From Gemmatimonadota bacterium (GTDB lineage Bacteria; Gemmatimonadota; Gemmatimonadetes; Palauibacterales; Palauibacteraceae): a stretch of DNA of 64,000 bases. The position numbers and the translations under genes are program-made. Positions 13,750 through 30,861 of this stretch are shown here, in pieces (the stretch's first letter is position 1; each line of letters starts with the position of its first letter). The stretch is from positions 704,001 through 768,000 of the forward strand of contig OZ220691.1 in NCBI GenBank assembly GCA_965116475.1, in the 5' to 3' direction. The notes under the pieces are model-generated. The model did no database searches. It had not been told where the DNA came from and saw only the letters and a program-made list of their open reading frames with translations.

Positions 13750-14769
13750 CTACTTGGTCCAGACGACAACCACGCCGCATCGCGAATCGGACCCGCCGAA
13801 TTCGGCCGGAAGCGACGCCGCCCCCCGGTACACCTCTACTCCGGCCACCTCGATGGGAAGCACCAAAGCGTCGAGGGAGGAACTCCCAACCTGGATGTTG
13901 TCCAGATACACAGCCATGGTGCAACCTGCACGAGCGTTGAACATCCCAGCCCGAACGCTGGGGAGTTCCTCTATCATATTCGAGATTCGCAGCGGTCTCC
14001 GACGCTCGATGTCCGCAGCCGTATAGAAGGTCCCGAGGCCGAGCAACTCTCCCCAGTGTTGCCGCTCGTAGAAGCCCTTGATCTCCAGACGTCGCGACCG
14101 CGTGGTCGACACCACCAGGGGCTCCAGTTCCATCGGCTCCCGCACAAGGCTGATCTCCAACTCCGTCGTGCGTCCGGTGGTCACGTCAACCGCGTGGCGA
14201 AGCGGCGCGTAGCCGAGCCGTCGAACCTGTAGCTCGTGCCGCCCCGCCGGCACGCCGGTCAGCCGGAACAAGCCCTGTCTGTCGCTTGCGACCTCCGTCG
14301 GCCGGCCGACGACGCTCACGGCCGCCGTCTCCACGGGACGCCCGGTCTCCGTGTCGACCAAGCGCCCGATCAGACGTCCCGACCGAACCGAACTCAGGAT
14401 CCGCAGGCGGACCTCTCGCTCCTCCCCGGCTACGATGCCCTCCGGCGCCGCCTGCCCGCTCGAATGATCCCCGAATTCCGCCCACACGACCGCCTGACTC
14501 GCGTCGCGCGGAACGCACAACCGAAGGCGGCCGTTGGCATCCGTCGCCTCTCGCACCGGCATTCGTTCCGCATCGGTCCAGCGAAGAACTACCGTGGCGC
14601 CGGGCAGTACGATACTCCCGGATTCGTCCAGCACGGTGACAAGAAGCGAGGCCGACTGACCGCAAGCCGCCTGCTGGGCCGCGGTCGGGGCCGAGTTGGC
14701 CAGCAAAGCGGCTGAAGCAATAATCCCACATGTACTTAGAGGTCGGCACCTGGACGACCAAAGATTCAT
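13750..14769 (-). CDS. Secreted 2x carboxypeptidase-regulatory-like + TonB plug protein, no beta-barrel
   Basis: RBS GGAGG, signal peptide, GRFRLTGVP..H.L.VRRLGY-type domain, plug end GVEVYRGAASLPAEFGGSDSRCGVVVVWTK*. Confidence 0.8.
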   Translation of the reverse strand: MNLWSSRCRPLSTCGIIASAALLANSAPTAAQQAACGQSASLLVTVLDESGSIVLPGATVVLRWTDAERMPVREATDANGRLRLCVPRDASQAVVWAEFGDHSSGQAAPEGIVAGEEREVRLRILSSVRSGRLIGRLVDTETGRPVETAAVSVVGRPTEVASDRQGLFRLTGVPAGRHELQVRRLGYAPLRHAVDVTTGRTTELEISLVREPMELEPLVVSTTRSRRLEIKGFYERQHWGELLGLGTFYTAADIERRRPLRISNMIEELPSVRAGMFNARAGCTMAVYLDNIQVGSSSLDALVLPIEVAGVEVYRGAASLPAEFGGSDSRCGVVVVWTK

Positions 14770-14825
14770 GTCTTTCCTCCCGTACACCCGGCCAACTCCG
14801 TCTCGATTAGATGCGGCACGACAAC

Positions 14826-14856
14826 GTATGGACGTGGAGAGCGCCCGGCAGGTCAC
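14826..14856 (-). promoter_or_regulatory. Putative ECF-sigma promoter copy 2
   Basis: GTGACC tgccgggcgctctccac GTCCATAC. Confidence 0.7.
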
Positions 14857-14949
14857 GAAGCCGAGAGGAAGTGATGGTGTCCTGATGCGGGGGGATCGCG
14901 AGGCCGAGCAACTCTCCCTAGCTGAGCGTGAGCTCGGGCCGACGTCGCG

Positions 14950-15170
14950 CTATCGGGTCCACACTACGATGGCACCGCACCGCGCGTCGGACCCGGCGAA
15001 CTCCCCCGGGAGCGACGCCGCACCCTTGTACACTTCAACGGCGGCGACCTCCCTGAGCGAGATCGGTACGGGCATTCCTCTCAAATCAATCCCGTCGAGG
15101 TAGTACTTCATCGGGCACGGCCGACCGGAGAACCCTGCGCTCAAGCGTCGATTGCGCAGGTTCGAGGTTA
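14950..15170 (-). pseudogene. C-terminal remnant of a plug-only protein
   Basis: NLRNRRLSAGFSGRPCPMKYYLDG...EVYKGAASLPGEFAGSDARCGAIVVWTR*; all upstream domains are missing. Confidence 0.85.
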
Positions 15171-15181
15171 ATGCTGCATAG

Positions 15182-16243
15182 CTAGCAGACCTGTCTCACG
15201 ACGTCCGTTTCGAGCCGTAGGCGCAGGATGTACTCGAAGTCCAAGGCCCCCGACGCCACGACATGGATGCGGCCGCCGGCACCCACCTTGGTCAGAGACA
15301 CACGGTGCCGTACTGCTACGAAGCCACGGTACGCGCCGCAGTTGTCCAAGAGATCCCAGGTACTGGTTGCATCGGAGTCCGGCTGGCGCCTGATCCAGAA
15401 CCAACCCTCCGGTGAGACGTCCAGTTCCGCCCACTCGGCGGCGCCCGCTATTCTCCCCGGCAAGATCGTGCGTAGCGTGTCACCCGCAAACGACAGCTGT
15501 TGCAGGCGTCTTTCGTTGATACTTCCCACCCACAACTCACCGCCGGGGGACACCGCCCCGACGGTCTTCGGAGCTTCCGTCCGCGTGACAACCACCGTCA
15601 CTGAACCAGCGCCGGTAGTGCTGGTTCGTGGTACACCCTCACTATCGGCCGTCGCTTCGACCACGAGCATGGCGTCATGTGTGATCGCATACTCCGAATC
15701 GGCCGTACCGCGCGCGGCGTATCGGTACGTCGAATCCCGGTTCGGAGAGGGTCCCCACAGGAACTGGTACAGGCGACCCTGCGGATCCACTCCGACCACC
15801 GTCCCAAGGGGTGCCGTATTGGGCGGGACGAAACTCGGTGCCCGAACCTCGCGCGCATACTCGGTTCCGAGTGAATCGAGCACCAGGCGCTGCAGTCCAT
15901 CATCGATCCACAGCCGATCCCTGTGCGCGTCCCATGTGACCCGAGTCGACCCGATGTTCCAGTATTGCCTTTCTCCGGGTCCCCCACCCTCGGGTGCGAG
16001 CCGTCTGACGAATCGCCCGTCGCGGTCGAAGAGCCGTACCTCCTTCCACCCCACGTCCGCTACGTAGATCCGGCCCTCAGGATCGACCGTGAGGTCATGG
16101 ATGTCGGCAAACACGTCGGGGCCGGATCCTTGGATCCGGCCCAGCCGCAGCTCCTCCGCCAAGTGCATTTCGGCGTTCTGCGCGGTCAGCGACCCCGTGC
16201 AGAGCGCCGAAACGAGAACGGTGAGGCCTGTCGCTGACTTCAC
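15182..16243 (-). CDS. Secreted 6-bladed beta-propeller
   Basis: GTG start, RBS GGAGG, LAPEGGGPGE; clear paralogue of 12572..13621. Confidence 0.8.
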   Translation of the reverse strand: MKSATGLTVLVSALCTGSLTAQNAEMHLAEELRLGRIQGSGPDVFADIHDLTVDPEGRIYVADVGWKEVRLFDRDGRFVRRLAPEGGGPGERQYWNIGSTRVTWDAHRDRLWIDDGLQRLVLDSLGTEYAREVRAPSFVPPNTAPLGTVVGVDPQGRLYQFLWGPSPNRDSTYRYAARGTADSEYAITHDAMLVVEATADSEGVPRTSTTGAGSVTVVVTRTEAPKTVGAVSPGGELWVGSINERRLQQLSFAGDTLRTILPGRIAGAAEWAELDVSPEGWFWIRRQPDSDATSTWDLLDNCGAYRGFVAVRHRVSLTKVGAGGRIHVVASGALDFEYILRLRLETDVVRQVC

Positions 16244-16295: not shown

Positions 16296-16965
16296 CTACT
16301 TCGTCCAGATCACCACGGCACCGCAGCGAGCGTCGGAGCCGGCGAACTCGGCGGGGAGGGAGGCCGGTCCGTCATACACTTCGATGCCCGCGATCTCCAC
16401 CGGCAGGACCAGTTCGTCCAGCTGCCCGCTCGGCATTCTGATGCCATCAAGGTACACGTAGAGTTGGCAGCCTCCGGTCGAGAACCCCCCCGCCGACCTC
16501 CTCGTGCTTTCGAGTACGCAGCCACGGATGCCGCTTCCGCTGCAGCGCAGGCGCATTCCGGGGACATCGGCGATCATGCGCGTGATGCGGACGGGACGTC
16601 GGCGCTCGATATCATCGACCGTGAAGAAGGTGCCACCACCGGTCAGTTCGCCCCAGTGCCTGCGTTCGTAGAAGCCTCGGATCTCGAGATTGCGCGGCCT
16701 GATCACCGTCGCCACGATCGGCGGCAGCGCCATGGCGTCCGGCGAGAGGCCGAGTTCGACTTCCGTGGTGAACCCTTGTTGCACGGACACCGCGTGGGCG
16801 AGGGGTGCGTATCCGAGATGCCGCACCGACAGTTCGTGTTCGCCGACCGGGAGCCCGCTGAGGACGAACCGACCCCTCTGGTCCGTCTGTACAACCTGCG
16901 TCCGGCCGGACACGGAAATCGCAGCCGCGACCACCGTGCTCCGCTGGACGGACGCGGAGCGACGG
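16296..16965 (-). pseudogene. Plug-only protein with N-terminus deleted or rearranged
   Basis: Second domain and plug intact (…GSDARCGAVVIWTK*); signal peptide and first domain absent, with an inverted scrap in their place. The track ORF start at 17198 lies inside the neighbouring gene. Confidence 0.8.
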
Positions 16966-16974
16966 CACGATACC

Positions 16975-17005
16975 GTATGGACATCGCGAGCGCTCGGAAG
17001 GTCAC
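16975..17005 (-). promoter_or_regulatory. Putative ECF-sigma promoter copy 3
   Basis: GTGACC ttccgagcgctcgcgat GTCCATAC. Confidence 0.7.
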
Positions 17006-17046
17006 GAAGGCGGCGGAGCGCGATGCCGTCTCGATGCGGTGGATCG

Positions 17047-18186
17047 CTATTTCGTCCAGACGACCACCGCGCCGCACCTTGCGTCGGAGCCGGCAAACTC
17101 GGCTGGGAGCTGCGCGGGGCCCTGGTAGACTTCCACTCCGGCCACTTCAACGGGCAGCACGAATTCGTCCACCGCACCGCCCCGCAGCAGGACGCCATCC
17201 ACGTAAGTGTTCATCGTGCAGCCTCCCGGAGAAAACCCCTGCGAGAATCGCGGATTCACCAGTTGACAGCTGTTGATCCCGCTGCCGCTGCACCGGAGTC
17301 GGATTCCGGGTGCGTCGGCAATCATGTGGCTGATGCGGAGTGGTCGTCGCCGATCAATGTCCTCTACCGTGAAGAACGTGCCACCGCTAACCAACTCGCC
17401 CCAAAACTTGCGCTCGTAGAACCCCACGATCTCCAGCCGTCGCGGTCGGATCACGGTTGCCACGAGCGGCTCCATCTCCAGAGGCTCTGCCGGCAGTGCG
17501 ATCTCGAGTTCCGTGGTGAGTCCTGACGTCACCGACAGCGGATGCAGAAGGCGCGCATACCCTATCCGGCGTATCTCCAAGTGCTGTTGGCCGGCAAGTA
17601 TACCGCTCAAGGCGAAGTGCCCTTGCCGATCGGTCTCGACAGCGGTGGCCCGGCCGACCAGTGACACGGCGACCGCGCTCAGCGGACGATTCGTCTGAGC
17701 GTCCACCACGCGCCCGACTACCCGGCCCGGCTCCACCGTACCAAAGAGCACCCGGAGTTCGACAGCGTGCGCGGCGGCGGGGTCCAACTGGACAACCGCT
17801 TGCTCGCTCGAATTGTCGCCAAGCTCGGCCCAGATCGTGGCGTGTCTGGCGTCCATGGGGACGCAGAGGAAGAGGCCCCCGTCCGCTCCCGCCGCTTCGC
17901 GCACCGGCCTACTTACGCCGTCCGTCCAGAGGAGAACCACGGTGGCCCCGGGTAGAGGGATCACACCGGACTGGTCGGTGACGGTTACCAGCAGGGAGGC
18001 CCGGTCGTCACACGTCTCGGGCTGCTGCGCCTCTGCCGCGACTGCACCGGACGCGAGTTGTACCGCAACCACGACCGCAACAACAATCGCAGGCATCCAT
18101 TCCGGCGGTCCCCAGTGCAGGCGACCGATACGAACGCGCCGATCTCGTCGAGGTCGGGTGTCAGGTGATTGCCGCTTGGAGGTCAC
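17047..18186 (-). CDS. Secreted 2x carboxypeptidase-regulatory-like + TonB plug protein, no beta-barrel
   Basis: Same architecture, ends GSDARCGAVVVWTK*; start may be ATG 18096. Confidence 0.8.
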   Translation of the reverse strand: MTSKRQSPDTRPRRDRRVRIGRLHWGPPEWMPAIVVAVVVAVQLASGAVAAEAQQPETCDDRASLLVTVTDQSGVIPLPGATVVLLWTDGVSRPVREAAGADGGLFLCVPMDARHATIWAELGDNSSEQAVVQLDPAAAHAVELRVLFGTVEPGRVVGRVVDAQTNRPLSAVAVSLVGRATAVETDRQGHFALSGILAGQQHLEIRRIGYARLLHPLSVTSGLTTELEIALPAEPLEMEPLVATVIRPRRLEIVGFYERKFWGELVSGGTFFTVEDIDRRRPLRISHMIADAPGIRLRCSGSGINSCQLVNPRFSQGFSPGGCTMNTYVDGVLLRGGAVDEFVLPVEVAGVEVYQGPAQLPAEFAGSDARCGAVVVWTK

Positions 18187-19469
18187 TTCGGATTGTGCCC
18201 CGTTTCACCGGGAGACCGCGGGCCGGCTGCGCCTGCGCCGCGGCGAGAGGGATCGCGGCGGCGCGGTCCGCTTGCTTCGGATAAATCTCTTCGAACAATC
18301 CATCCGGCGGCTTCGGCGTCGGGAGGCCCCGTAAACTCGAGCACCTCTCCGCTCGTGGTAAGCGGAACGGCAACCGGCCAGACGGTAGTCCCGATACCAG
18401 CCTCGACCAGCAGCCGGTGAAGAAGGACCGGTGAGCGGATTTCCCACTTGCGGACGAACCAGCGATCCGCCGCAAGCTGTTCGAAATCAAACCGGCCGCC
18501 GAATTGGGACTCCTTGATCTCGGTTCGGCGAAAACTGATGCGGCGATACCGGGATGACAGTTCCGCCCGCAACGACGGCTCCAAGTGCCGTCGCAGAAAC
18601 GGACGCAAGGAAGTGTACTGGAACTCCAGTTCCTCCGGTCCTCCATCGACTCTGTTGATCCACAGCACGCCCTCGACATCAACAACTCGCCGATTCGGCT
18701 TCGGTTCGAACCCCAGTCCGAGCCTCCGTTCATTCTCGCTCGCGACCGGCCGCAGGCAATGCGTCGCCAAGAAGCCGGGTGACGCCAGCGCGCTTTCGTC
18801 CGGGGCGTAGAACGTCGTCAGAGAATCGCCGATCACTTCCGCGTATCCGTACACCTCAAGGTGATTCGGTGAAGCGTTGTCGAAGTACCGCTCCACGACG
18901 ACAGTTGCCGTGTCCTGGGCGTAGTGGCGTCCGCCGCGCTTCCACACGACGGTTGGCCGTATGGTCCGCATCCGCAGTGACCCAAGATCCGTGGAGGCAA
19001 TCGAGGTGAGGATCGGGAGGATCGACTCGTAGAGCGCGAAGGCCTGGGTCCGTTCTTGACGGGTCGTTGGACAGTCGTTTTGCGCCGACGCCGACAACTC
19101 CGGAAGCGGAATCGGTTTGATCGGGACACGTAGGAGTATCGTTCGTGACTCCGATATCGACGCGATATGGAGGGTATCCGATGCCCAGGACTGATAGCCG
19201 ATGCGCGTTACCCGGACGCGATAAACGCCCGGTGGGGGAACCGGCAGGCTGAACGCCCCCCGTCCGTTCGAGAGCGTCTCGCCTGAGACAGCATCCTCCG
19301 AGTTGATCAATGCGACCACTGCGCCTTCAACTGGCAGGCCCTCGCCCTCCGCGACGAGAAACCCACTCAGGCGCGTACCTGCATCCTGAGCTGCGAGGAA
19401 AGACGCAGCCAGCATGAACCCGGCGCTCGTCGCCAGAACTGCACTCCCGAAGGCGCTTCGACGCCTCAT
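18183..19469 (-). CDS. Secreted carboxypeptidase-regulatory-like domain protein; C-terminus replaced by out-of-frame foreign sequence
   Basis: Signal LAAQ, GRGAFSL..P.PGVYRVRVTRIGY, downstream FLATHC / GLGFEP / VEGVLWI region; ATGA overlap with the upstream gene. Confidence 0.7.
   Translation of the reverse strand: MRRRSAFGSAVLATSAGFMLAASFLAAQDAGTRLSGFLVAEGEGLPVEGAVVALINSEDAVSGETLSNGRGAFSLPVPPPGVYRVRVTRIGYQSWASDTLHIASISESRTILLRVPIKPIPLPELSASAQNDCPTTRQERTQAFALYESILPILTSIASTDLGSLRMRTIRPTVVWKRGGRHYAQDTATVVVERYFDNASPNHLEVYGYAEVIGDSLTTFYAPDESALASPGFLATHCLRPVASENERRLGLGFEPKPNRRVVDVEGVLWINRVDGGPEELEFQYTSLRPFLRRHLEPSLRAELSSRYRRISFRRTEIKESQFGGRFDFEQLAADRWFVRKWEIRSPVLLHRLLVEAGIGTTVWPVAVPLTTSGEVLEFTGPPDAEAAGWIVRRDLSEASGPRRRDPSRRGAGAAGPRSPGETGHNPK
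18222..18324 (-). pseudogene. Fragment of a second anti-sigma gene copy
   Basis: Reads PTPKPPDGLFEEIYPKQADRAAAIPL; near-identical DNA at about 27283-27385. Confidence 0.8.
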
Positions 19470-20704
19470 TCGCCCGACCGTTGGACGCGGAACATGCGAA
19501 TCGTCGGCAACCCGAAGGCGTCCCGCGACTCCGCCCACACCAGGTCGCCCCGAACGGCCAGCAGCCGAGCATCGTCGGGGAGGGACACATATGACACATC
19601 CCTTTCCCCCGCGACGACCAGCCAGTCGTTGGTGCGTCCAGACGTATCTGAGACATCGAACCACATCGCGACTCCGGAGTCGATCAGCACACCCCCCTCT
19701 CCGATTCCACGTCCGCGGTTCCGCACCGGCGGATAGTAGTCGGGTTCGTCAAGGGCATCAAGAACCGCGCTGATGCCCGCCGCGCGGCTCGGGAACACCC
19801 CCAACCCTACCATACGCTCCACCGCCCCGAGGTCCGCCGCCCATTTTCGTATCTCCGGTGTCTCAAGAGGGCGTGGCACATACGGGATGCTTATGGAGTC
19901 CGTACTCCGTTGGAGGACGCTGTGGCGTTCCACTACGAAAGAAGCCCGGGACCTGCTCGGCTTCGGCCGTCGAACGACTGCAACTGTTCGGCCGGACGGA
20001 TCGAGCGAAAACATGTCACTGTGCGAGAAAGGGTTGCGAAGTTGCAAGCCGCCGCCACCGGCCGGCACGGCGACCGATAGTGATCGACCAGCAAGATTCA
20101 GCACAGTAACAGTCGTTGCTTCAACATCGGCCTGATGTCCAATCGCATCGTAGGCAAGGACCTCAAGAACCGCCCCCTCCCTTGCCCACCTTAGCGCGAC
20201 GACCCGTCGATCCGCCAGTACCGCGAACGGTTGGAGTCGATTGCCTTCCGCGGTGGCCGCCCCCCATGTCGCCGGACCGATATCCGCGAGGAATGTTCCG
20301 GTAGTAGAATCATACAGATTGATCCGAGGTCGTCCCGCGTCAACGACCCAGAGGGTGTCTTGCCCCAGCAACCCGAGACGCCATGGCGAAAGGAACTCGC
20401 CAGGCCCTTCTCCCCACCGGCCAATCTGTCGACGGAATGTACCATCTGCGTCAAAAGCCAGTATTCCGTCTATCTGTACATCCAGGAGGAATATGGAACC
20501 ATCGGCACCCGGGATCAAGTGTTCAACGTAAGTTAACGGGATGCTGTCCGGGACGGCCAGATTGGACATGTGGACAAGTGTGTCACGCCTATCCTGAGCT
20601 TTGGCCTCCTCCAGTGCGGCGAGGGTCAATACGACAACCGGCAGCACCCCACCGAGAGATCGCAGCTGTCCGGCCCACCAGCCGGGAATCACGGTCTTTT
20701 TCAT
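19466..20704 (-). CDS. Secreted 6-bladed beta-propeller
   Basis: RBS GGAGG, signal AKAQ, IGRWGEGPGEF, C-terminal VWAESRDAFGLPTI. Confidence 0.8.
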   Translation of the reverse strand: MKKTVIPGWWAGQLRSLGGVLPVVVLTLAALEEAKAQDRRDTLVHMSNLAVPDSIPLTYVEHLIPGADGSIFLLDVQIDGILAFDADGTFRRQIGRWGEGPGEFLSPWRLGLLGQDTLWVVDAGRPRINLYDSTTGTFLADIGPATWGAATAEGNRLQPFAVLADRRVVALRWAREGAVLEVLAYDAIGHQADVEATTVTVLNLAGRSLSVAVPAGGGGLQLRNPFSHSDMFSLDPSGRTVAVVRRPKPSRSRASFVVERHSVLQRSTDSISIPYVPRPLETPEIRKWAADLGAVERMVGLGVFPSRAAGISAVLDALDEPDYYPPVRNRGRGIGEGGVLIDSGVAMWFDVSDTSGRTNDWLVVAGERDVSYVSLPDDARLLAVRGDLVWAESRDAFGLPTIRMFRVQRSGE

Positions 20705-21122: not shown

Positions 21123-22050
21123 TTACGCCAAGGTACCATCGTTGATTGAGCAGCTCCGTCTCGGAACTGGAGTTTCGCCACCCGCCAAGGCGGAAAATCT
21201 ATCGATGCGGGCGATCGTGTGGTATCCTGCGAGCGCATTCGAACTCCCTGTACTGTACTGGCCGGGCACCAGAGCGCCCTGCTCGAACACGGGCACCGGC
21301 TTGAACGTCCCGGGAGGCGCGCCGAGTTCGCCGACCGAATCGCCCTCGGCGTTGAGGATGGCCATGGGGTATCGGAGAGAAGACGCCAGGTAGATCGAGT
21401 CGCCCGCCACCGCGAACGGGAAGCCGATAATCGACATCCAGTAAGGTCTTTCGACGGGCACGAACGGCAGGGAGTGAGCGCTCCAGACAACGCTCTGTCG
21501 CTTCACGCGATGCAGCAACAGGGGCTGCCGGAAGAAGCGTGATGCGTCTTCGGTCCACTCGGTGAGCAGGTTCATTCGCACGAGCAGATCGTCGCCCAGC
21601 GATTCGACCCGCCGCGGAACGCCGGGAAGCGACACCAGAGTATCCGGCCGCAGGTCGCTCGTGAGGTAGGTCAGTCCGGCTTGACCACCGTCTGCCACGA
21701 CGACGCGTCCTGCGGGCGTTTCGGTGACGCTTCCGATCCGCTGAAACTCGAACGGGCCCCGCCCGAATCGCCCGAACGCCGCTTCAAGTCGACCGTCCTC
21801 GTCATAGCTTCGGATTCTGGGGAGATGACCGTCACTCAGCAGGAAACCGCCACGGCGTCGCTCCTGCCAGATTCCCGGAATGGAAATGGAGTCCCGCGGA
21901 TCCTCACCCAGCGTGATGACGGCTTCGGTCGCGAATACCTCCTCCAGCGTCGCCCGAACCGCGGGTCGACTAGAGGTGGCATCGGACGTACACGCAACAC
22001 CCCGCAAGGCAGGTGAGGACAGCAAGAACCCGTAACGTTCGCCTGATTAC
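21123..22050 (-). pseudogene. Damaged paralogue of propeller 9085..10197
   Basis: Aligns by eye to 9085..10197 up to about TIARI, then loses the C-terminus; apparent +1 G at 22000-22003 breaks the signal/lipobox. Confidence 0.75.
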
Positions 22051-22052
22051 GT

Positions 22053-22377: not shown

Positions 22378-22408
22378 GTATGGACTCTGCCGACGCTCGG
22401 AAGGTCAC
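22378..22408 (-). promoter_or_regulatory. Putative ECF-sigma promoter copy 4
   Basis: GTGACC ttccgagcgtcggcaga GTCCATAC; duplicate of copy 1. Confidence 0.65.
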
Positions 22409-22457
22409 GAGGTTGGCGTGCGGCCAAGGCCGGACCTCTCTCGGCAGCGACGTCAGG

Positions 22458-23075
22458 CTACTTGGTCCAGACGACAACCACGCCGCATTGCGAATCGGAC
22501 CCGCCGAACTCGGCCGGTAGGGATGCCGCCCCCTTGTAGACCTGTAGCTCGTGCCGCCCCGCCGGCACGCCGGTCAGCCGGAAAAAGCCCTGCCTGTCGC
22601 TTCCGGCCTCCGTCGGCCGGCCGACGACGCTTACAGCCGCCGTCGGCACGGGACGACCGGTCTCCGTGTCGACCACGCGTCCGATCAGACGTCCCGACCG
22701 CACCGAACTCAGGATGCGCAGGCGGACCTCTCGCTCCTCCCCGGCTACGATGCCCTCCGGCGCCGCCTGTCCGCTCGAATGATCCCCGAATTCCGCCCAC
22801 ACGACCGCCTCACTCGCGTCGCGCGGAACGCAAACCCGAAGACGGCCATCTGCATCCGTCGCCTCCCGCACCGGCATGCGTTCCGCATCGGTCCAGCGAA
22901 GAACCACCGTGGCCCCAGGCAACGCGATGCTCCCGTACTCGTCCAGCACGGTGACGAGAAGCGAGGCCCTGTCACCGCAGTCTCCCTCCTGTCCGGCCGC
23001 CGCTTCGAAGCTCACTCCGATCAGCGTGATGAGGGTGACCACCCGCGCCACCCAGTACTGTTTCAGGTCAGGCAT
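22458..23075 (-). CDS. Plug-only protein with in-frame internal deletion (possibly a pseudogene)
   Basis: Near-identical to 13750..14650 but GRHELQV is joined to YKGAASLPAEF (393 nt missing); has its own different signal peptide. Confidence 0.8.
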   Translation of the reverse strand: MPDLKQYWVARVVTLITLIGVSFEAAAGQEGDCGDRASLLVTVLDEYGSIALPGATVVLRWTDAERMPVREATDADGRLRVCVPRDASEAVVWAEFGDHSSGQAAPEGIVAGEEREVRLRILSSVRSGRLIGRVVDTETGRPVPTAAVSVVGRPTEAGSDRQGFFRLTGVPAGRHELQVYKGAASLPAEFGGSDSQCGVVVVWTK

Positions 23076-23189
23076 GTGCATCCTCGGTAGGCGGCATCGT
23101 CGAACGTTGCTCGTGCCGGCTCAAGGTCCCATATCGTTTCTCCCGTTACCGCCGAGCGGCTCCGTCTCGATGGGATGCGACGTGTCAAC

Positions 23190-23220
23190 GTATGGACGCG
23201 GCAAACGACCGGCAGGTCAC
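23190..23220 (-). promoter_or_regulatory. Putative ECF-sigma promoter copy 5
   Basis: GTGACC tgccggtcgtttgccgc GTCCATAC. Confidence 0.7.
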
Positions 23221-23290
23221 GAAAGTCAGCAAGGCGTGATGGCGTCCGGGTCGGGAGATCGCGGCGCACCCATTAGGGCGGAGGTCTTCG

Positions 23291-24589
23291 TCAACTCGGC
23301 AGCCCTCGACATTCGCGACCGGGTGCAGCGGCACCGTCGTTTCGTTCGAAGACGCTCACATAGGATTCGCCAAACGTTCCTACCGACGTGGTGAGAACGG
23401 ACGAGCGGGTTGCGTGCAGGAAGCGATGACCCTCCGGAAGCTCCATCACGCGCGACGTTCCCTCCTGCGGCCGGACTGCGACCCACGACCTCGACCCCTC
23501 CTCGTCCCCGGCTTCCAGTTGCAACCACAGCTCGCCGGGAACCCCGCTCCTGATGCTCCGTACCGGAAGCAGGACATCCCGCGCGGGTACAGCCAGTGCT
23601 CTTTCCCGCAGTGTTTCAGACACCTGCGACAACAGTGGTGTGGTCGACTGCAGATAGTCGTACCGCTCGCTCCTCCTCCGTCGCTCCTTCTCTTCGATCC
23701 CGGCTGGCACCGGTGCGCCCTCCAGACCCAGGTGGATCCGCGTCGCTACCGTCCCATCTCCTCGCATACCGACTACAGATGCCTCAGCTGTGTCGACGAG
23801 ATACAGAAGGTCGTCGTTCACCGTACCCAAGGTCGTCGCGCCGAACAGAACGCGCCCCGGTTGGATGCGGTCGCCGAGGTCCACGGAGTACATCTCGGCA
23901 CCGGGCACGTGGGCAAGAAGCGACCAGTCACCTTGCGGGCTTCGGCGCAGGTACCGAATCGGCCTTCGCCAGATACCTCGGCGCTGGCGGTCCGAGAGCC
24001 GTCCCATTTGGGTCTGCGAAGCAACCACCGACCCGTCCTCCAGGAGCCCCAGGCCCAGCGGGGGTGGCGGATCGAGAGAGTGAAGCGTCCTGCTTTCCAG
24101 AAGCTCACCGCCCGGCGACAGCTCGGACATGCGCTGCAGCAGCACGTCCCACACCCAGATCGTCCCGTCGCCGCGCAAACCCATATGGGTTGCCTGTCGA
24201 AACTCACCGGGCCCTTCGCCATCTCTTCCGACGACTCTGATCTGTCGCCCATCCGGTCCGTAGATCAATAGTTCGGTCCACCCGGACAGCACAGCGAACC
24301 GCCCGGATTCCAGGAGCAGCCCGGCCTGAACGCTTCGCATGGGCTCACCGGTATCGTCATCGAGCCCGCCGACCGTGAGGACATGTGTCACGCCGATCCT
24401 CGGAAGGTTGCTCGCCGGTCGCGGGTCGTTGTACGTCCAGACGCCCTCGGCGTCCACCGAGCACTCACCGGACAGATCCGAGTATTGGTCCGACGCAGGC
24501 GCATCGCTGGAACACGCAGCAGCACCAATCGCCGCACACAGGGTTGGGACCAAAACGGAGGACGAGAAACTCTTCTTGCGCCGTGCCAT
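23291..24589 (-). CDS. 6-bladed beta-propeller lipoprotein
   Basis: Lipobox AAAC, VGRDGEGPGEF, C-terminal GTFGESYVSVF. Confidence 0.8.
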   Translation of the reverse strand: MARRKKSFSSSVLVPTLCAAIGAAACSSDAPASDQYSDLSGECSVDAEGVWTYNDPRPASNLPRIGVTHVLTVGGLDDDTGEPMRSVQAGLLLESGRFAVLSGWTELLIYGPDGRQIRVVGRDGEGPGEFRQATHMGLRGDGTIWVWDVLLQRMSELSPGGELLESRTLHSLDPPPPLGLGLLEDGSVVASQTQMGRLSDRQRRGIWRRPIRYLRRSPQGDWSLLAHVPGAEMYSVDLGDRIQPGRVLFGATTLGTVNDDLLYLVDTAEASVVGMRGDGTVATRIHLGLEGAPVPAGIEEKERRRRSERYDYLQSTTPLLSQVSETLRERALAVPARDVLLPVRSIRSGVPGELWLQLEAGDEEGSRSWVAVRPQEGTSRVMELPEGHRFLHATRSSVLTTSVGTFGESYVSVFERNDGAAAPGRECRGLPS

Positions 24590-24596
24590 GAGCTGA

Positions 24597-25154
24597 TCAC
24601 CAGGGGTGAGAGGCTGGATCGTTGCGTCGGTGAGCATAGCCTGAACCGATGCGACCCTCCGTGATCCATCCGCCGGCGAACCACGTTCCGTCCGAAGCGC
24701 GCACGAGCGCTCCGGCGATCGGACCGTTCAGCGGGACGGTTTCGGGGTTCACTTCCGCCCCGGCTTCGATCTCCGGCAGGGACAACCGCGTGAGGCGCTG
24801 ATGGATGCCATCGAGGATCCAGACCTCGTCGGGCGATTCCGCAGCCCCGATGACGACCTGCTCCGGATCCTTGAACTCGCCCGGGCCGTCGCCCTGGCGG
24901 CCGTAGGAACCGAGGCGCCCCGGCGTCTCGAGATCGACGACGTGAACCGACGGCTCCAGCAGCGCGTCCAGCGCCACCACGCGGTCCCCAGCCAACGCGA
25001 TCTCAACGATCCAGCCGAGCGAGTCGTCCGCGAAGACGGCGTCCGGCGTCAACTCGGCCGGGCTGCCGGCATCGACCGTGGCCGGTTCCGCCTGACGACA
25101 GGCGCCGACCGCCAGAACCGCGACGGCCGACAGCCCGATCGCTGACCGCCTCAT
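24597..25154 (-). pseudogene. C-terminally truncated TolB-like 6-bladed propeller lipoprotein
   Basis: Lipobox VGAC, YGRQGDGPGEF; only 185 aa against about 350-430 aa for intact relatives, and sequence style changes near 24650. Confidence 0.65.
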
Positions 25155-25164
25155 CGCGACTCCA

Positions 25165-25371
25165 CTAGGGCTCAACACAGCGCGGCAGCCGGTTTCGCTC
25201 CTGCATGTCCGGGCAGATGCAGTCCACCTTGGATATGCTGCCGCACCCCTCTTCCGTACACGACGCGGCGGAGAGCCTGAGACCGACGGGGGCATCCGCA
25301 TCTGCGGTGACCGGAACAGCCGCCACGATTACCGCGAACGCTGCCGTGGCCAAGAAACGCTTGAAGCTCAT
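25165..25371 (-). CDS. Small secreted Cys-rich peptide (68 aa, 5 Cys)
   Basis: RBS GGAGG, signal MSFKRFLATAAFAVIVAAVP, C-x4-C-x7-C-x-C-x11-C. Confidence 0.75.
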   Translation of the reverse strand: MSFKRFLATAAFAVIVAAVPVTADADAPVGLRLSAASCTEEGCGSISKVDCICPDMQERNRLPRCVEP

Positions 25372-27547
25372 CGTGTCCCTCCAGGTTCGAGTGTTGCCGG
25401 CTATCTGACCGGCGCCGGGAATCCCCCAGCAGAAGTGCAATACGTAGCGCGGGTGCGAGAGCCTCCCCGCGATATCGCAGAGTGCCGCCGCCGTCCACGA
25501 CGAAGAACTGCACCTCCCGCCAGGCGCGCAGGGCTTCCCAGACTTCGGAATGCCTGTCATACAGGAACGGGGGCATCTCCGGAGTGCCGTTCTCGGCGGC
25601 GGTCCGATCCTCGCTCCCGGAATCGGGATTGACGGTGACCAGCAACGCTCGCGCACCCGCGGCCGCCAGTTTCGATTCATTAGCCCTGAGTAGATCCAGA
25701 CTCTCCTCGGGGACGTAGCCCGGTCGAAGGGTCTGGATGATCAGCGTCACGTCGCCGCCGGTCACCTCGTGCAACGTCCTCTCTTCTCCAGAGGCAGTCT
25801 CGAGCCGGGCGCTTCCGTTGACCCACTCATCGAGCAGTGACGATGCCAGGTGCTCTCGCCATGCCGCGCGGGCTACGGCGCGAAGGGCTTCCGTCGGTGC
25901 GGTCGCCCAGTCTTCTCCCTCGGGCACGTAGGGCGCGAGCGGGATGACGGGGTCCGCCTGCGCGAGCGCCAGCAACTGGGCGGCGCGCGTCGATGACCCG
26001 GCCTCCGCGTGGAACCTCGCCAACTCCACGAACAAACGGGGATCCCAACTGAGTTCGCCGGCGCGCTCGAAGGCATCGAGCGCCCCCGCCCGGTCCCCGC
26101 GGTCCACCCGCAGCCGGCCGAGCAGCACGTGCAGGCGGGCCACACTCTCGGCAACCTCCGCCTCGAAGTTGGCTCGCGTGCCCGTCAGCGGCCGATCCGT
26201 GCCCAGCCAGTCCGGCTGCCCACTCAACTGCCGCAGGATCCACTCCTCGGCGATCGCCCCAAGAGCGGGCACCTCGGCCATGCGTTCCGTCACTTCGACA
26301 TCGAGCCGGGAATCTCGAAACACGGGATTCGCGGCGTACCTCTCAAGCCAGATTCCGGTAAGGGCAGGATCGGCCACCTCTTGGGCGAGCTGCAGCCCGA
26401 CCTGGGCCGCCGAGGGCATCGGCGCGAGCCTCCAGCTCCGGTCCAGCGCGTCCAGCTTTTCCGTGTGCGACGTTGACGACAGAAGGATCGACTCCAGCCG
26501 CACCTGCGACGCGTATTCGTGCCGTGGATGTTCGGCGGCGAGTTCGCTCCGCCAATAGGCCTCGATCTCCTCCCGGCCGAGGAGGCGGGCGTAGAGGCTC
26601 AGGGCGTACATTTCGCCCGGTTCGGAGTCTCCCTGCCGCGCCGTCGCGTCCATCCGCTCAAGACGCCGTAGATGCGCGTTCCGCGGGGTCTCTCCCGGGC
26701 CCCCGGGAGCCGCCCCCTCCTCGTACAGGAGGAGAGATGTCCATAGCTCGGGGCGCTCGGGGTACTCCGACAACCCGCGCTCGATCGTCTCAACGACCCG
26801 CCGGGGGTTCAAGCGCGAGGTGGCCAGCACCTGGTACAGGCGGGCGTCGAGCGTCGCTCGGCCCTCCGCGTCCGTCTCGAGGTACTCCCACGACCGGCCG
26901 AAATCGCTGTCAATGTAGTTTCCGTCCAGATCTTCGACGGCCGCGGCCGCGTACACGGTGCCGGGGGGCAGAGCGACCGTTCCGGAGAACACGCCGGGTT
27001 CCTCCCGGGAGAGTTCGACCACGCGGTATCCGGGTTCAGTCTGGGCGAAGCGGAGCGGGTCGGGCACCCAATAACGCAGCCGCGCCCGGAGGCCGGGCTC
27101 CACCGCCAGCGGCGAGACCGTCTCGTACTGGAGCGTGAGTGCGCCCGGTTCCTCACCGTGGAATCGCAGAGTGCTCGCACCGGCCATGGCCCGCTCGGGT
27201 CCAAGCGTCAACACGAGGACTGCCGCGATCCCTGCCACCACGAGGGCCCCTGCCGAGACGGCCAAGGGTCGGGAGGACGCAACCGGCTGCATCTGCGAAA
27301 CCACCAAAGGGATCGTGGCGGTATTGCCCGCTTTCTTCGGGTAAATCTCTTCGAACAATCCATCCGGTGGCTTCAGCGTGGGAACGGCGCGGAGTGCCGC
27401 ACTCAACTCGCGAATGAGCCGGACCTCGCGCCGGCAGACCGCACACGAACGAACGTGTAGCCGCACGGCAGTGGCCGACGGTTCGGGCAGCACCCGGTCC
27501 GCGTAGCGGTTCAGTGTCTGATCGTCGATCTGTGTGCAGGATTCCAT
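25172..27547 (-). CDS. Anti-sigma factor fusion: zf-HC2 + TM + helical/TPR region + redoxin-like C-terminus
   Basis: HVRSCAVC (HxxxCxxC), TM ALVVAGIAAVLVL, TPR-like LLGRL...GALDAFERA, C-terminal FFVVDGGGTLRYRG; directly downstream of the ECF gene; native stop probably at 25401-25403. Confidence 0.75.
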   Translation of the reverse strand: MESCTQIDDQTLNRYADRVLPEPSATAVRLHVRSCAVCRREVRLIRELSAALRAVPTLKPPDGLFEEIYPKKAGNTATIPLVVSQMQPVASSRPLAVSAGALVVAGIAAVLVLTLGPERAMAGASTLRFHGEEPGALTLQYETVSPLAVEPGLRARLRYWVPDPLRFAQTEPGYRVVELSREEPGVFSGTVALPPGTVYAAAAVEDLDGNYIDSDFGRSWEYLETDAEGRATLDARLYQVLATSRLNPRRVVETIERGLSEYPERPELWTSLLLYEEGAAPGGPGETPRNAHLRRLERMDATARQGDSEPGEMYALSLYARLLGREEIEAYWRSELAAEHPRHEYASQVRLESILLSSTSHTEKLDALDRSWRLAPMPSAAQVGLQLAQEVADPALTGIWLERYAANPVFRDSRLDVEVTERMAEVPALGAIAEEWILRQLSGQPDWLGTDRPLTGTRANFEAEVAESVARLHVLLGRLRVDRGDRAGALDAFERAGELSWDPRLFVELARFHAEAGSSTRAAQLLALAQADPVIPLAPYVPEGEDWATAPTEALRAVARAAWREHLASSLLDEWVNGSARLETASGEERTLHEVTGGDVTLIIQTLRPGYVPEESLDLLRANESKLAAAGARALLVTVNPDSGSEDRTAAENGTPEMPPFLYDRHSEVWEALRAWREVQFFVVDGGGTLRYRGEALAPALRIALLLGDSRRRSDSRQHSNLEGHDELQAFLGHGSVRGNRGGCSGHRRCGCPRRSQALRRVVYGRGVRQHIQGGLHLPGHAGAKPAAALC

Positions 27548-27558
27548 CGTACAGCTCC

Positions 27559-28092
27559 CTACTGCTCGAACAGCTCGGCGCGAAGCAGCTTCCGCGCCTT
27601 GTGCAACCGCGACTCCGAGGTCGAGCGCGAGATCTGGAGAAGCTCGGCGATCTCCTCGTGCGACCACCCCTCGATCTCCTTGAGAACGACAACGGTCCGC
27701 AGTTCCTCCGTCAGCGAAGACAGCGCTCGCTCCACTGCGATCGAGTTCAAGACGGGGATTTCCGGCGACGTGACGACCTCCCCTCCATCGGGCGCCGCCG
27801 CCATCGCAGTCTCGTCTCGTCGCCGCTCCGACCGGACGTGTCGGAGGGCGACGCGAGCCGTCACGGAACGAAGCCAGGGGCCCAGCGACCGCTTGCCATC
27901 GAAGCGCCGAAGCATCTCGGGAAGGTCGCCAAAGACATCGTGTAGTACATCCCGAGCATCGGCAGACGACTCCGTCAAACGATACGCCACAGCGAACAAC
28001 GGCTTCGCGTACTCCTCGTACAAGGACTGCAACGCACGGCGATCGCCGCGCGCCGCCCTACGCGACAATCGCCTCTCCCGGGCCGCGGTCAT
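27559..28092 (-). CDS. ECF RNA polymerase sigma-70 factor
   Basis: GDRRALQSLY, DARDVLHDVF, FDGKRSLGPWL, EGWSHEEIAELL...SRLHKAR; start uncertain, ORF is open further upstream. Confidence 0.93.
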   Translation of the reverse strand: MTAARERRLSRRAARGDRRALQSLYEEYAKPLFAVAYRLTESSADARDVLHDVFGDLPEMLRRFDGKRSLGPWLRSVTARVALRHVRSERRRDETAMAAAPDGGEVVTSPEIPVLNSIAVERALSSLTEELRTVVVLKEIEGWSHEEIAELLQISRSTSESRLHKARKLLRAELFEQ

Positions 28093-28678
28093 CAAACCGC
28101 GCGACCTCCCGCAACCAGGCGTGCCTTCTTGACTCTCTCCACGGAGAATCTCTTTCTCGTCGTCGGGCCCCTGCGCCGGAGCCGATGCTCCCGGCGTGGA
28201 TCCTCCCTCTACAGTTAATTGCCCGCCCGAGGGCAAAACTTGCATCGCGTCCATCCGGCGTTTTTCGACGAAGATGGCCCTATGCGAAGGTTTTGCAATC
28301 GATAAGTATAGCGATGGCAACACGATAGGAGTGTGGAGGCTTCGGAAACAGTCATCGGAAATTGGACGGCGCTCGCTGCCGTTGGCACCTTGGCGACGCC
28401 GTCCTCGACCCGACGTGTCGGCAGCGTTCACCACCTGCCGGTGGGGCGACACGCGGCGGCCTGCCCCGAGCTACCGGGACAGGCCGTTCGTACGCTTCGA
28501 GTGGCTCCGCAGCGAGCTGTCTTGCGTGCGCGTCTAGCCGAGACGGATCACGCCGCGGCCGGGGTCGGGTCGCATGTTTTTCTCCTTTGAGGCATGTCGT
28601 TCGTCACCGAGAGCGCGCCAGAAAACGGCGCTCCCGATAACACAAACGCCTCCGGATCGAAAAACCTTACATCACGCC

Positions 28679-29716
28679 CTACTTCGTCCAGATCACGATG
28701 GCGCCGCAGCGTGTGTCGGAGCCGCCGAACTCGGCCGGAAGCGATGCCGGGCCCTTGTATACCTCGACTCCCGCGACCTCCACCGGAAGGACGAGAGTGT
28801 GGAGGGCGACGTTGCTCACATCGACGCTGTCGAGGAATGTCTTGATGTTGCAGCCGGCGCCTGAGAACCCGGCCGACAGTCTCGTGCTGTAGAACCTCCC
28901 GTCCCGTCCCAACCGGATTCCCGACATATCGGCGATCATGTGGCTGATGCGCTGCGGCCGCCGACGCTCGATGTCGGCGGCGGTGAAGAACGTGCCTCCG
29001 CTCACGAGTTCGCCCCACAGCTTCCGCTCGTAGAACCCCTTGATCTCCAGGCGGCGGGATCTCGTCACGGTCGCGACGAGCGGCTCCATTTCGACCGGCG
29101 TGGGCACCAGCCCGATCTCCACTTCCGTGGTGAGCCCGCGCGTCACCGTCACGGCGTGGCCAAGCGGGGCGTAGCCGATGTGTCTCACTTCCAGTTCGTG
29201 CTGCCCTTCGGGGACGGCGGACAGAACGAAGGCGCCGCGCCGGTTGCTTTGGGCCTGCCGGCCCCGACCCCGGACGGATACGGCGGCCGTGGCCACGGCA
29301 TCGCCGGTCACGCCATCGTATACCCGGCCGATGATCCGCCCCGCACGGACCGTCCCGATGAGGACCCGGAGTTCCACCTCGCGTACCTCCCCGGGTTCGA
29401 AGACGACGACCGCCTGCTCGCTCGACCCGTCCCCCAACTCGGCCCACAGCGTCGCCTCCTGCGCGTCACGAGGGACGCAGAGGAAGAAGCGGCCCTGGGG
29501 ATCGGCGGCTTCGCGCACTGGCCGCCGCCTCGCCCCGTTCCAGCGGAGCACCACGGTGGCCCCCGGCAGGGCGACCGTCCCGGATTCGTCCAGGACCGCG
29601 ACGCGAAGCGAAGCCCGGTCGCCGCATTCATCCCCGTCCTGCCCGACCGCCGGAGTCACGGCGACCCCCAGCAGCGACACCACCGCGATCGTCATCGTCC
29701 GTATCACTCGCGTCAT
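28679..29716 (-). CDS. Secreted 2x carboxypeptidase-regulatory-like + TonB plug protein, no beta-barrel
   Basis: Signal AVGQ, same architecture, ends GSDTRCGAIVIWTK*. Confidence 0.82.
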   Translation of the reverse strand: MTRVIRTMTIAVVSLLGVAVTPAVGQDGDECGDRASLRVAVLDESGTVALPGATVVLRWNGARRRPVREAADPQGRFFLCVPRDAQEATLWAELGDGSSEQAVVVFEPGEVREVELRVLIGTVRAGRIIGRVYDGVTGDAVATAAVSVRGRGRQAQSNRRGAFVLSAVPEGQHELEVRHIGYAPLGHAVTVTRGLTTEVEIGLVPTPVEMEPLVATVTRSRRLEIKGFYERKLWGELVSGGTFFTAADIERRRPQRISHMIADMSGIRLGRDGRFYSTRLSAGFSGAGCNIKTFLDSVDVSNVALHTLVLPVEVAGVEVYKGPASLPAEFGGSDTRCGAIVIWTK

Positions 29717-29745
29717 CTCCAGTGCATGGGCAAGGCGCTCCCCGT

Positions 29746-30861
29746 CTACTTCGTCCACACCACGACGGCGCCGCAGCGCGCGTCGGACCCGCCGAACTCC
29801 GCCGGGAGCGTGGCCGGCCCCTTGTACACTTCGACGCCGACGATCTCGAACCCCCGCAGGTTCCACCCGTCACGCCACTCGACCCCATCGACGAAAACCT
29901 TCACGCTGCACGTCAGGTTCAAGAAACCCGCGCTCATGCGCCGATTCCTCGGCGACCGCCAGGTGATCCCGGGGACGTTGTTTGCCACAAGGGAGCGGAC
30001 GTCCCTGGGTCGCCACCGCTCGATGTACTCGGGTGAGAAGAAGTAGCCGTTGCCGGTCAGCTCGCCCCAGTACTTCCGTTCGTAGAACCCCTTGATCTCG
30101 AGCCGGCGCAGTCTCGCCACGGTCGCCACGATCGGCTCCATCTCCACGGGCGTCGGCACGAGGCCGATGTCCACCTCCGTCGTGACGCCCGGCGTTACGT
30201 CGATCCGATGGCGGAGCGGGGCGTAGCCGATGCGTCGCACCTCCAGGTGACGCACGCCGGGCCGCACGTCGCTGAGGATGAACCTGCCCTGTCGGTTGCT
30301 CGCAGCTTCCGGCGCGTGACCGGTCACGGATACCGCCGCCGTGGCCACGGGGTTTTCCGTCAGCGCATCGTACACGCGGCCGATGAGGCGCCCCCGGCGA
30401 ACTTCGGACAGGAGCACCCGGAGTTCGACCTCCCGCACCTCTCCGGGCGCGAGGGCCACGGTCGCCTGTTCGCTCGAATCGTCGCCCAGTTCCGCCCACA
30501 GCACCGCTTCTTTCGCCTCCTCAGGGGCGCAGAGCAGGAAGCGCCCCTCCGGCCCGGCCGTTTCTCGCAGCGGCATCTCCTCGACGTCGGACCAGTGGAC
30601 CACGAGCATGGCGCCGGGGATCGGGATGTTGCCCGACTCGTCGACGACCGTCACCTGAAGGGAAGGCCGGTCCCGGCAACCGTCGTCCTGCCCCAGGACC
30701 GGGCCGGTCGACGCCGCGAGGAGGAGGGAGAAGAAGAAGAAGAGGGAGATGATGCGGCAGGTTCGCCGCGGGCGGCGTGGTTCGTAACGGGGAACTCCGG
30801 GTTCGTTGCCCAAGGCCGTTCCTTTCGCTCTGTCCCGCGCGGGTGCGCCCGGGCAGGACAC
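29746..30861 (-). CDS. Secreted 2x carboxypeptidase-regulatory-like + TonB plug protein, no beta-barrel
   Basis: Signal VLGQ, same architecture, ends GSDARCGAVVVWTK*; start uncertain. Confidence 0.82.
   Translation of the reverse strand: MSCPGAPARDRAKGTALGNEPGVPRYEPRRPRRTCRIISLFFFFSLLLAASTGPVLGQDDGCRDRPSLQVTVVDESGNIPIPGAMLVVHWSDVEEMPLRETAGPEGRFLLCAPEEAKEAVLWAELGDDSSEQATVALAPGEVREVELRVLLSEVRRGRLIGRVYDALTENPVATAAVSVTGHAPEAASNRQGRFILSDVRPGVRHLEVRRIGYAPLRHRIDVTPGVTTEVDIGLVPTPVEMEPIVATVARLRRLEIKGFYERKYWGELTGNGYFFSPEYIERWRPRDVRSLVANNVPGITWRSPRNRRMSAGFLNLTCSVKVFVDGVEWRDGWNLRGFEIVGVEVYKGPATLPAEFGGSDARCGAVVVWTK

Follow-up and report, generated by a model that had tools for sequence, protein, structure and literature searches.

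A Gemmatimonadota-Wide Family of Barrel-Less Proteins with a TonB-Box Motif and a Predicted Plug Domain

Introduction

The closest described counterparts of the proteins treated here are the N-terminal modules of TonB-dependent transporters of the SusC/XusA/Oar type, with which they share domain order, homologous sequence, a predicted plug fold and the place of the TonB box. We analyzed a 64,000-nt stretch of a marine-type Gemmatimonadota genome, referred to throughout as the window (C1:704001–768000 of a single-contig genome of 3.62 Mb with a G+C content of ~70%), in which seven copies of a gene for such a module lie on the minus strand between positions 13750 and 30861. In contrast to the SusC/XusA/Oar-type transporters, the window proteins lack the 22-strand barrel, and they differ further in an extra N-terminal beta-sandwich, an insert of ~22 aa, two Cys pairs and their placement in a separate clade.

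Three other systems invite comparison. The isolated plug of FepA is likewise free of its barrel and, in the account given in PMC11658791 of the work by Usher et al. (2001), bound its ligand enterobactin at ~5 µM even though it was unfolded. As presented there, however, this plug is a laboratory-made object with ~100-fold lower affinity, whereas the window family is natural, phylum-wide and endowed with features that possibly stabilize the fold. BlaR1-like M56 sensors also use Plug and CarboxypepD_reg domains outside a barrel in the envelope, and in a preprint survey of ~15,000 M56 proteins in InterPro, TonB_C, Plug and CarbopepD_reg_2 belong to the C-terminal domains that reach at least 100 entries (10.64898/2026.04.08.717257). 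These are, however, membrane-anchored protease sensors paired with BlaI, whereas the window proteins stand on their own and are associated with a sigma factor of the extracytoplasmic function (ECF) type and an anti-sigma factor. Like FecA/FecR/FecI, the window locus encodes a protein with plug and TonB box next to an ECF sigma factor and an anti-sigma factor, but it has neither a barrel nor an STN domain, and Pfam assigns its anti-sigma factor to zf-HC2 rather than FecR. Full-text literature searches on plug domains without barrels gave nothing on such proteins, and the words TonB, plug, propeller, carboxypeptidase and sigma are all absent from the main text of the Palauibacterales genome paper. 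What we describe is a familiar domain that occurs by itself, in an unstudied form.

A Barrel-Less Family in Gemmatimonadota

The window genes belong to a Gemmatimonadota-wide family that corresponds to the N-terminal module of a SusC/Oar-type transporter and ends natively at the last plug strand. No window copy scanned with Pfam matched a barrel model (PF00593 or PF25183), and the proteins are neither TonB-dependent transporters nor receptors. A word-indexed search for relatives returned 417 clusters of proteins 189–604 aa long (E ≤ 0.001), the best 120 of these 417 being 311–400 aa, and an exhaustive search over all lengths among 1.84 billion representatives gave 10,492 matches at E ≤ 0.001, including 92 at E ≤ 1e-30. 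Where names are given, the relatives are Gemmatimonadota or Candidatus Palauibacter, and the closest relatives of the window proteins are Gemmatimonadota, mostly Candidatus Palauibacter, wherever the source gives a name. A hidden Markov model (HMM) of the C-terminal domain was applied to 269 retrieved proteins, 238 of which contained the complete domain, and 235 of these 238 end within 12 residues past it; the three remaining tails are 17, 37 and 175 aa long, and none exceeds 250 aa, which leaves no room for a barrel. The intact window genes are therefore not truncations, and their lack of a barrel is native. Longer relatives (589–860 aa) owe their extra length to N-terminal CarboxypepD_reg repeats only, and 9 of the 16 that were scanned exceed the cut-off for the Plug model PF07715, with scores up to 50.9 bits. 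The earlier note on this DNA, made without database searches, had placed the stop codons at the boundary between plug and barrel; the relatives bear this out, and neither a C-terminal domain without a plug fold nor homologs that continue into a barrel were found.

In a comparison set of 201 Gemmatimonadota genomes from 98 genera, seven of them congeners of the genome studied here, the C-terminal profile was found in 104 genomes and 59 genera (102 of 199 genomes without G097 and G182, which are flagged as unpublished and on which nothing else here depends), and all seven congeners contain it, with 5–16 matches each. Comparison of three orthologue pairs, one member of each being from a congener, gives ratios of nonsynonymous to synonymous substitution rates (dN/dS) of 0.24, 0.24 and 0.33, which shows purifying selection. 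In a tree of the plug domains of this genome, a single branch with a Shimodaira–Hasegawa-like approximate likelihood ratio test (SH-aLRT) support of 100 splits 20 barrel-less domains from 26 transporter plugs; this tree, which is the product of a quick search and in which the barrel-less rows include the helical insert described below, suggests one origin for the barrel-less plug domains of this genome.

The genome was also searched for a barrel that could be supplied in trans. PF00593 matches 19 places, 17 of them over the cut-off and contained in 16 open reading frames (ORFs), and in all 16 of these ORFs PF07715 is present in frame with the barrel. None of the 19 places lies inside the window, which confirms that no barrel gene is located there. 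The Oar-like barrel PF25183 occurs in two ORFs, one of which has a clear Plug domain and the other a weak full-length Plug match (residues 278–379, E 0.099). Of the transporter ORFs, 26 have a plug, and phmmer queries made from their barrel parts retrieved only these 26 ORFs at E ≤ 1e-4. No plug-less barrel was thus found in the genome with PF00593, PF25183 or phmmer, by a search that works on sequence and would miss a barrel of an unfamiliar family, and the proposal of interchangeable plugs for a barrel encoded elsewhere is therefore unsupported.

Predicted Fold of the C-Terminal Domain

Pfam recognizes the C-terminal domain weakly. With gathering cut-offs of 32.3 bits for PF13620 (CarboxypepD_reg) and 23.9 bits for PF07715, a CarboxypepD_reg domain was found once in each of the six copies scanned (42.8–73.5 bits, E 7e-11 to 2e-20), and PF07715 matched four of the six at E ≤ 0.01, exceeding its cut-off in one (24.6 bits). 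A paralogue elsewhere in the genome, at C1:2029424, scores 45.7 bits with PF07715. A profile built from 74 family members aligns co-linearly with solved transporters, starting in their N-terminal extension and running through the plug (XusA, 9gbc_A, at residues 24–230 with an E value of 1e-18; SusC homologs at residues 30–232), and, at E values of ~1e-4, it matches the plugs alone of PirA, Cir and BtuB.

The last 136 residues of the protein encoded at 28679–29716, which served as query for searches and models, were folded alone from 89 aligned sequences, with a predicted local distance difference test score (pLDDT) of 92.1 and a predicted template modeling score (pTM) of 0.86. A Foldseek search of this model against the PDB gave 28 matches at E ≤ 0.001, and among the matches listed 50 of 50 are TonB-dependent transporters. 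VIA-align against 48,161 representative chains gave 44 chains at Z ≥ 2; transporter plugs fill all of the first 33 ranks, among them FyuA (Z 8.9, root mean square deviation 3.5, 109 residues) and BtuB (Z 6.0). The BtuB alignment places model residues 19–136 onto residues 6–132 of BtuB, so that the protein ends where the plug does. The nearest ESM Atlas clusters to the C-terminal part are short proteins named "Plug domain", mostly from Gemmatimonadota. A fold search with the whole 345-aa model is dominated by tandem immunoglobulin (Ig)/transthyretin-like proteins and is uninformative on the plug. The C-terminal domain is thus predicted to adopt a plug fold that matches only the plugs of TonB-dependent transporters, as the earlier note had proposed; this evidence consists of predictions from sequences homologous to plugs and is not independent proof.

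Domain Layout, TonB Box and Variable Loop

The intact proteins (~340–380 aa) consist of a signal-peptide-like N-terminus, a divergent beta-sandwich, the CarboxypepD_reg domain, a TonB box, a helical insert and the C-terminal domain. The probable signal peptides were read by eye from the N-termini of the copies, where A-x-(A/G)-Q comes after a run of hydrophobic residues; these ends, which recur in the plug and propeller ORFs between 11249 and 30861, resemble the +1 Gln "Q-rule" of Bacteroidetes. In the full-length model of the same protein (pLDDT 88.9), a beta-sandwich at residues 36–118 and the CarboxypepD_reg sandwich at 125–203 are followed by an extended linker that holds a TonB-box-like strand, two short helices at 221–238 and an alpha/beta domain at 242–344. 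Of the two carboxypeptidase-regulatory-like domains proposed previously, the second stands in all six copies scanned, whereas the first is not recognized by Pfam, with sub-threshold CarboxypepD_reg matches in two of three tested (19.1 and 16.6 bits), though it is modeled as a beta-sandwich. An NCBIfam scan returned nothing beyond far-sub-threshold partial matches.

The motif (L/M)-E-P-(L/I)-V-(V/A)-T directly follows the CarboxypepD_reg domain in the family and is well conserved across ~240 relatives (E 78%, P 95%, L/I 96%, V 74%, V/A 96%, T 73%). The transporters of this genome carry the boxes lDEIVVT, lGELVVT and lPDIVVT directly after CarboxypepD_reg, and the barrel-less proteins have mEPLVAT or lEPLVVS, which resemble these, at the matching place. 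At the level of sequence, the family thus has a TonB box ahead of the plug. An insert of ~22 residues that the transporters do not have separates this box from the plug core, with the consensus R-x-RRLE-x-x-GFYER-x-x-WGE (G 95%, F 95%, Y 91%, R 99%, W 85%, final E 89% in the same relatives); it is modeled as two helices that would cover the face which meets the barrel wall in a transporter. The three motifs first noticed in the window, MEPLVATV-like, RRLEIxGFYERxxWGEL and EVYxGxAxLPAEFxGSDxRCG, were all found again and are conserved in the ~240 relatives. Cysteines C31, C80 and C289 are conserved in at least 90% of the family and C337 is invariant, and these conserved Cys pairs may form two disulfides (C31–C80 and C289–C337).

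Transporters carry apical, ligand-facing loops in the part that runs from the PGV strand to the (I/L)DG strand. In the barrel-less family, the loop before the plug Cys is 17–39 aa long in 74 relatives and 9–44 aa in 243 relatives, and an extra Cys pair in it is the majority state (136 of 243). Mean entropy in the 74 relatives is 2.54 bits for the loop, 1.1–2.3 bits for the flanking blocks and 2.35–2.56 bits for the N-terminal domain. All loop types of the window are met again in other species, with close counterparts for the RLGRDGRFYSTRLSAGFSGAGC type, for the short RAGMFNARAGC type and for the Cys-pair type, and loop dN/dS between orthologues is 0.375, 0.33 and 0.40, over just 15–26 codons. 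The loop sequences quoted in the earlier note are correct, and two window copies do carry the extra Cys pair, but its description of the loop as hypervariable does not hold, because loop types are conserved between species, dN/dS is 0.33–0.40 and entropy is no higher than in the N-terminal domain. The loop is under mildly relaxed constraint and not diversification, and the paralogues are old lineages with orthologues and not a locally generated repertoire.

The Seven Copies

A repeat search of the window finds a family of 104-nt direct repeats with seven copies of 69–82% identity that start at 13750, 14950, 16296, 17047, 22458, 28679 and 29746. These positions are the 3' ends of minus-strand ORFs, exactly as reported before. 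The shared C-terminal end of the seven copies is RCG(A/V)(V/I)V(V/I)WT(K/R)-stop, and all 16 invariant columns of the seven-way alignment fall within the final 26 residues. Whereas seven proteins had been counted previously, four copies are intact (13750–14769, 17047–18186, 28679–29716 and 29746–30861) and three are decayed.

Numbered from the lowest coordinate, plug gene 1 (13750–14769) encodes 339 aa, with a CarboxypepD_reg match at E 1.8e-20; its ORF reaches 14856 and the likely ATG is at 14769, and its orthologue at the congener locus L013 has 81% aa identity (dN/dS 0.24). Copy 2 (14950–15160) is a C-terminal plug stub of about the last 70 aa that belongs to repeat family D2 and comes directly after the stop of a propeller gene at 15182. 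Copy 3 (16296–16934) is truncated; it retains one CarboxypepD_reg domain, the TonB box and the plug (24.6 bits) without the signal peptide and the first domain, and the upstream part of its ORF (16296–17198) is an out-of-frame overlap with plug gene 4. Plug gene 4 (17047–18186) has an ORF of 379 aa with a likely start near 18096 and an extra Cys pair in the loop. In copy 5 (22458–23081, 207 aa), an internal deletion has joined both N-terminal domains in frame to the last plug strand. Plug gene 6 (28679–29716, 345 aa) has an orthologue with 90% aa identity at L015, and plug gene 7 (29746–30861, ORF of 371 aa) has one with 83% identity at L013 (dN/dS 0.33).

Copy 5 lies within a DNA duplicate (22051–23223) that is 92–97% identical to the pair formed by plug gene 1 and its propeller (12570–14859) and has suffered three deletions, which removed the plug body, the propeller start and most of the propeller. 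In the coding part common to duplicate and original, dN/dS is 0.23 and dS 0.22. Sequencing runs X1 and X2 come from different studies; X2 contigs span 22131–29374 with zero base differences apart from four extra letters near 25418–25420, and since they cover the deletions of the duplicate unchanged, the deletions are not an artefact of this assembly. Plug copies have been both gained and lost in tandem. Contigs from X3, an RNA-library run, are ~95% alike over 13750–14653 and a few short pieces; they stem from a related strain and may reflect DNA carry-over, so they are no proof of transcription.

Gene Cluster and Genomic Context

The plug genes are part of a minus-strand cluster that begins with plug genes 7 and 6, followed by an ECF-type sigma-70 factor (27559–28452; Sigma70_r2 and r4_2; TIGR02937 E 3e-24), which is syntenic in three congeners, and an anti-sigma factor with a zf-HC2 domain and a large extracytoplasmic part (25172–27667). 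X1 and X2 contigs both have the four extra letters at 25418–25420, and the window probably contains a 4-nt indel there; the last ~80 aa of the anti-sigma ORF and the start of ORF 24597–25301 are therefore uncertain. Next come propellers, namely the propeller-like ORF 24597–25301, downstream of the anti-sigma gene, and a paralogue at 23291–24637 (together 23291–25301), both found with a custom HMM built from the window propellers. The decayed pair of copy 5 and a propeller remnant (22053–22427; custom HMM and repeats), the deleted duplicate of 12572–13663, is followed by propeller paralogues at 21123–22025 (custom HMM only, E 1.6e-58) and 19466–20704 (six-bladed; DUF5128 E 6e-10), a CarboxypepD_reg protein (18183–19664), plug gene 4, truncated copy 3, a six-bladed propeller (15182–16243), the stub, plug gene 1, a six-bladed propeller of the DUF5128/NHL-like type directly downstream of it (12572–13663) and a further six-bladed paralogue (11249–12460); the propellers at 15182–16243 and 11249–12460 were identified with Pfam and the custom HMM. 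Relatives of the propellers are named "6-bladed beta-propeller" in the sources. Three of them, at 12572–13663, 15182–16243 and 22053–22427, end in a C-terminal Cys (RRSC, RQVC), and 54 ORFs of the genome match the custom HMM.

The CarboxypepD_reg protein has a likely start at 19475, and its C-terminal ~320 aa match no Pfam family; relatives with 28–32% identity occur in the clusters of congeners G082 and G177, and in the ESM Atlas its features lie weakly (0.87–0.93) near clusters named SusC-family or DUF5686. A 200-aa ORF (10474–11076) that closes the cluster on its downstream side contains the CxxC motif C-R-T-C, matches no family in Pfam or NCBIfam and is possibly thioredoxin-like. PADLOC defence models assigned no family to any of the eight cluster proteins submitted. 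From ~10000 to ~30000 the cluster has a G+C content of 0.62–0.67 compared with 0.70–0.74 in the flanks, and 0.71–0.82 compared with 0.83–0.95 at third positions, though its gene order is common to congeners.

The order DctM, two to five plug genes, ECF sigma, anti-sigma and propeller is kept in congeners G082, G177 and G058, where the anti-sigma factor is 45–83% identical to that of the window, the number of plug genes differs, and a propeller follows the anti-sigma gene in all three loci. Tandem plug arrays without a sigma gene also exist (L017, L018). Within this genome, a propeller ORF lies no more than 3 kb from 4 of 11 plug-like loci, compared with 1.28 expected from 5000 random placements (P ~0.03). 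A complex prediction for plug protein 1 (residues 31–339) and the adjacent propeller (residues 35–363) scored 0.00 in two runs in which the controls did not fold, and it therefore speaks neither for nor against such a complex. A possible kinship of the anti-sigma factor with two TPR-redoxin proteins beside the paralogue at C1:269650 was rejected, as no similarity was found (best E 3.7–4.0).

A two-part motif, GTGACC-N17-GTCCATAC, which we take to resemble an ECF-type promoter, lies on the minus strand upstream of plug and propeller genes at 13670–13700, 14826–14856, 16975–17005, 22378–22408 and 23190–23220. These five exact occurrences, two of them inside the duplicate, are the only ones in the 3.62-Mb genome. 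Only this two-part form is specific, a 13-nt version showing no enrichment in the window (20 matches, 16 expected), and no copy of the motif appeared ahead of the sigma gene in 28050–28700. Scans for sigma-70-type promoters and terminators gave no more than shuffled controls.

Plug-like domains outside a barrel are found elsewhere in the genome. At C1:2017609–2024511 (L007:1609–8512), a BlaI-like repressor is encoded with an M56(BlaR1)-TonB_C protein that contains two partial Plug motifs and with a second M56-TonB_C protein, and beside these M56 genes are two proteins that each consist of CarboxypepD_reg, a plug-like domain, ~120 unassigned residues and a further CarboxypepD_reg. The genome has seven TonB_C domains, two of them in these M56 proteins. 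Barrel-free plug pieces near TonB_C domains, which bind TonB boxes, are thus not unique to the window. A 652-aa ORF at C1:1885409–1887367 (L009:7410–9368) contains complete plug-like domains at residues 133–269 and 517–651 in one frame and represents either a tandem module fusion or a pair of genes that no stop codon separates.

Discussion

We tentatively favor, at somewhat less than an even chance, the reading that the family consists of periplasmic binding or signaling modules that present a TonB box, mainly because barrel-free plug pieces also adjoin TonB_C domains elsewhere. The proteins would be exported and remain in the periplasm as free-standing plug modules, stabilized by the two conserved Cys pairs and the helical insert RRLExxGFYERxxWGE. 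The length-variable loop would bind a ligand or partner, and the TonB box would be presented to, and captured by, TonB or TonB_C-type sensor proteins. The conserved grouping of plug genes, ECF sigma/anti-sigma pair and six-bladed propellers in this locus points to a role in envelope sensing or regulation rather than transport. A more specific version, which we consider speculative and on balance unlikely, is that TonB or the TonB_C sensors have soluble periplasmic clients in the form of ligand-gated free plugs, in which binding at the loop exposes the TonB box, much as a ligand does in a transporter, and so links either the TonB machinery or an ECF sigma/anti-sigma switch to a signal in the periplasm.

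Several observations weigh against a TonB-box-presenting role. The remaining PF07715 scores in the window comprise three below the cut-off (17.7–20.9 bits) and two copies without a match, and AlphaFold may yield a plug merely because the sequences are plug homologs. Signal peptide and disulfides are read from the sequence, and binding to TonB, to a ligand or to a neighbor is inferred. According to Pfam, the anti-sigma factor belongs to zf-HC2 instead of FecR and STN is absent from the plug proteins, so the known route of signaling from transporter to sigma factor does not apply unchanged. A propeller lies within 3 kb of no more than 4 of the 11 plug-like loci, dispersed full-length paralogues in this genome sit among unrelated genes, and three of the seven local copies have decayed, which makes single copies dispensable.

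The proteins could instead be TonB-independent binders or scaffolds, that is, disulfide-bonded envelope proteins that reuse beta-sandwich and plug folds, for example to hold a glycan, a peptide or the neighboring propellers, with a box that is structural or vestigial. We regard this as somewhat less probable; the conserved Cys pairs, which also suit the soluble disulfide-stapled binders proposed in the earlier note, the length-variable loop, in which 136 of 243 relatives have an additional Cys pair, the pilin/adhesin-like tandem Ig/transthyretin-like domains that dominate the whole-model fold search, the enrichment of propellers beside plug-like loci and the duplication of one plug–propeller pair as a unit all fit it, but few stretches of the family are as well conserved as the TonB-box motif, and it agrees with the boxes of the genome's transporters both in sequence and in placement, which is hard to explain if it is vestigial. 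The proteins might also act as decoys, soluble TonB-box proteins under ECF control that compete with transporters for TonB and throttle TonB-dependent uptake. A conserved box on a channel-less protein, the linkage to an ECF sigma/anti-sigma pair and promoter-like motifs confined to the cluster are compatible with this idea, which we nevertheless judge improbable, as the box alone would do and the plug, the insert, the Cys pairs and the paralogue-specific loops conserved across species would be superfluous.

Two further explanations were considered. A split receptor, as suggested in the earlier note, in which exchangeable plugs enter a plug-less barrel encoded elsewhere, would account for a complete plug fold that ends exactly at the plug/barrel boundary and for several paralogues with differing loops. 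We consider it very doubtful, since in the sequence-based searches all 16 PF00593 barrels and both PF25183 barrels (one weakly) have a Plug of their own, the barrel parts of the 26 transporter ORFs retrieve no further ORF, and the barrel-less domains contain a helical insert of ~22 aa that transporter plugs do not have. That the copies are truncated transporter pseudogenes in decay is suggested by the visible degradation of three of the seven, but this is hardly tenable for the family and is refuted for the four intact genes: relatives in 59 of 98 genera and a stop position shared by 235 of 238, dN/dS values of 0.24–0.33 and the single branch that separates the family from real plugs all speak against it.

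Source annotations name these proteins "carboxypeptidase regulatory-like domain-containing protein" or "TonB-dependent receptor"; the latter is wrong, and proteins so named in this family are not receptors. Plug domains are described as parts of TonB-dependent transporters, whereas here barrel-free plugs under selection across a phylum keep a TonB box. This raises the questions of whether TonB has clients beyond transporters, how a lone plug stays stable, and what the numerous "carboxypeptidase regulatory-like" and "TonB-dependent receptor" annotations in Gemmatimonadota truly mean. If soluble TonB clients of this kind do exist, TonB-dependent signaling would take place without an outer-membrane channel, across the Gemmatimonadota.

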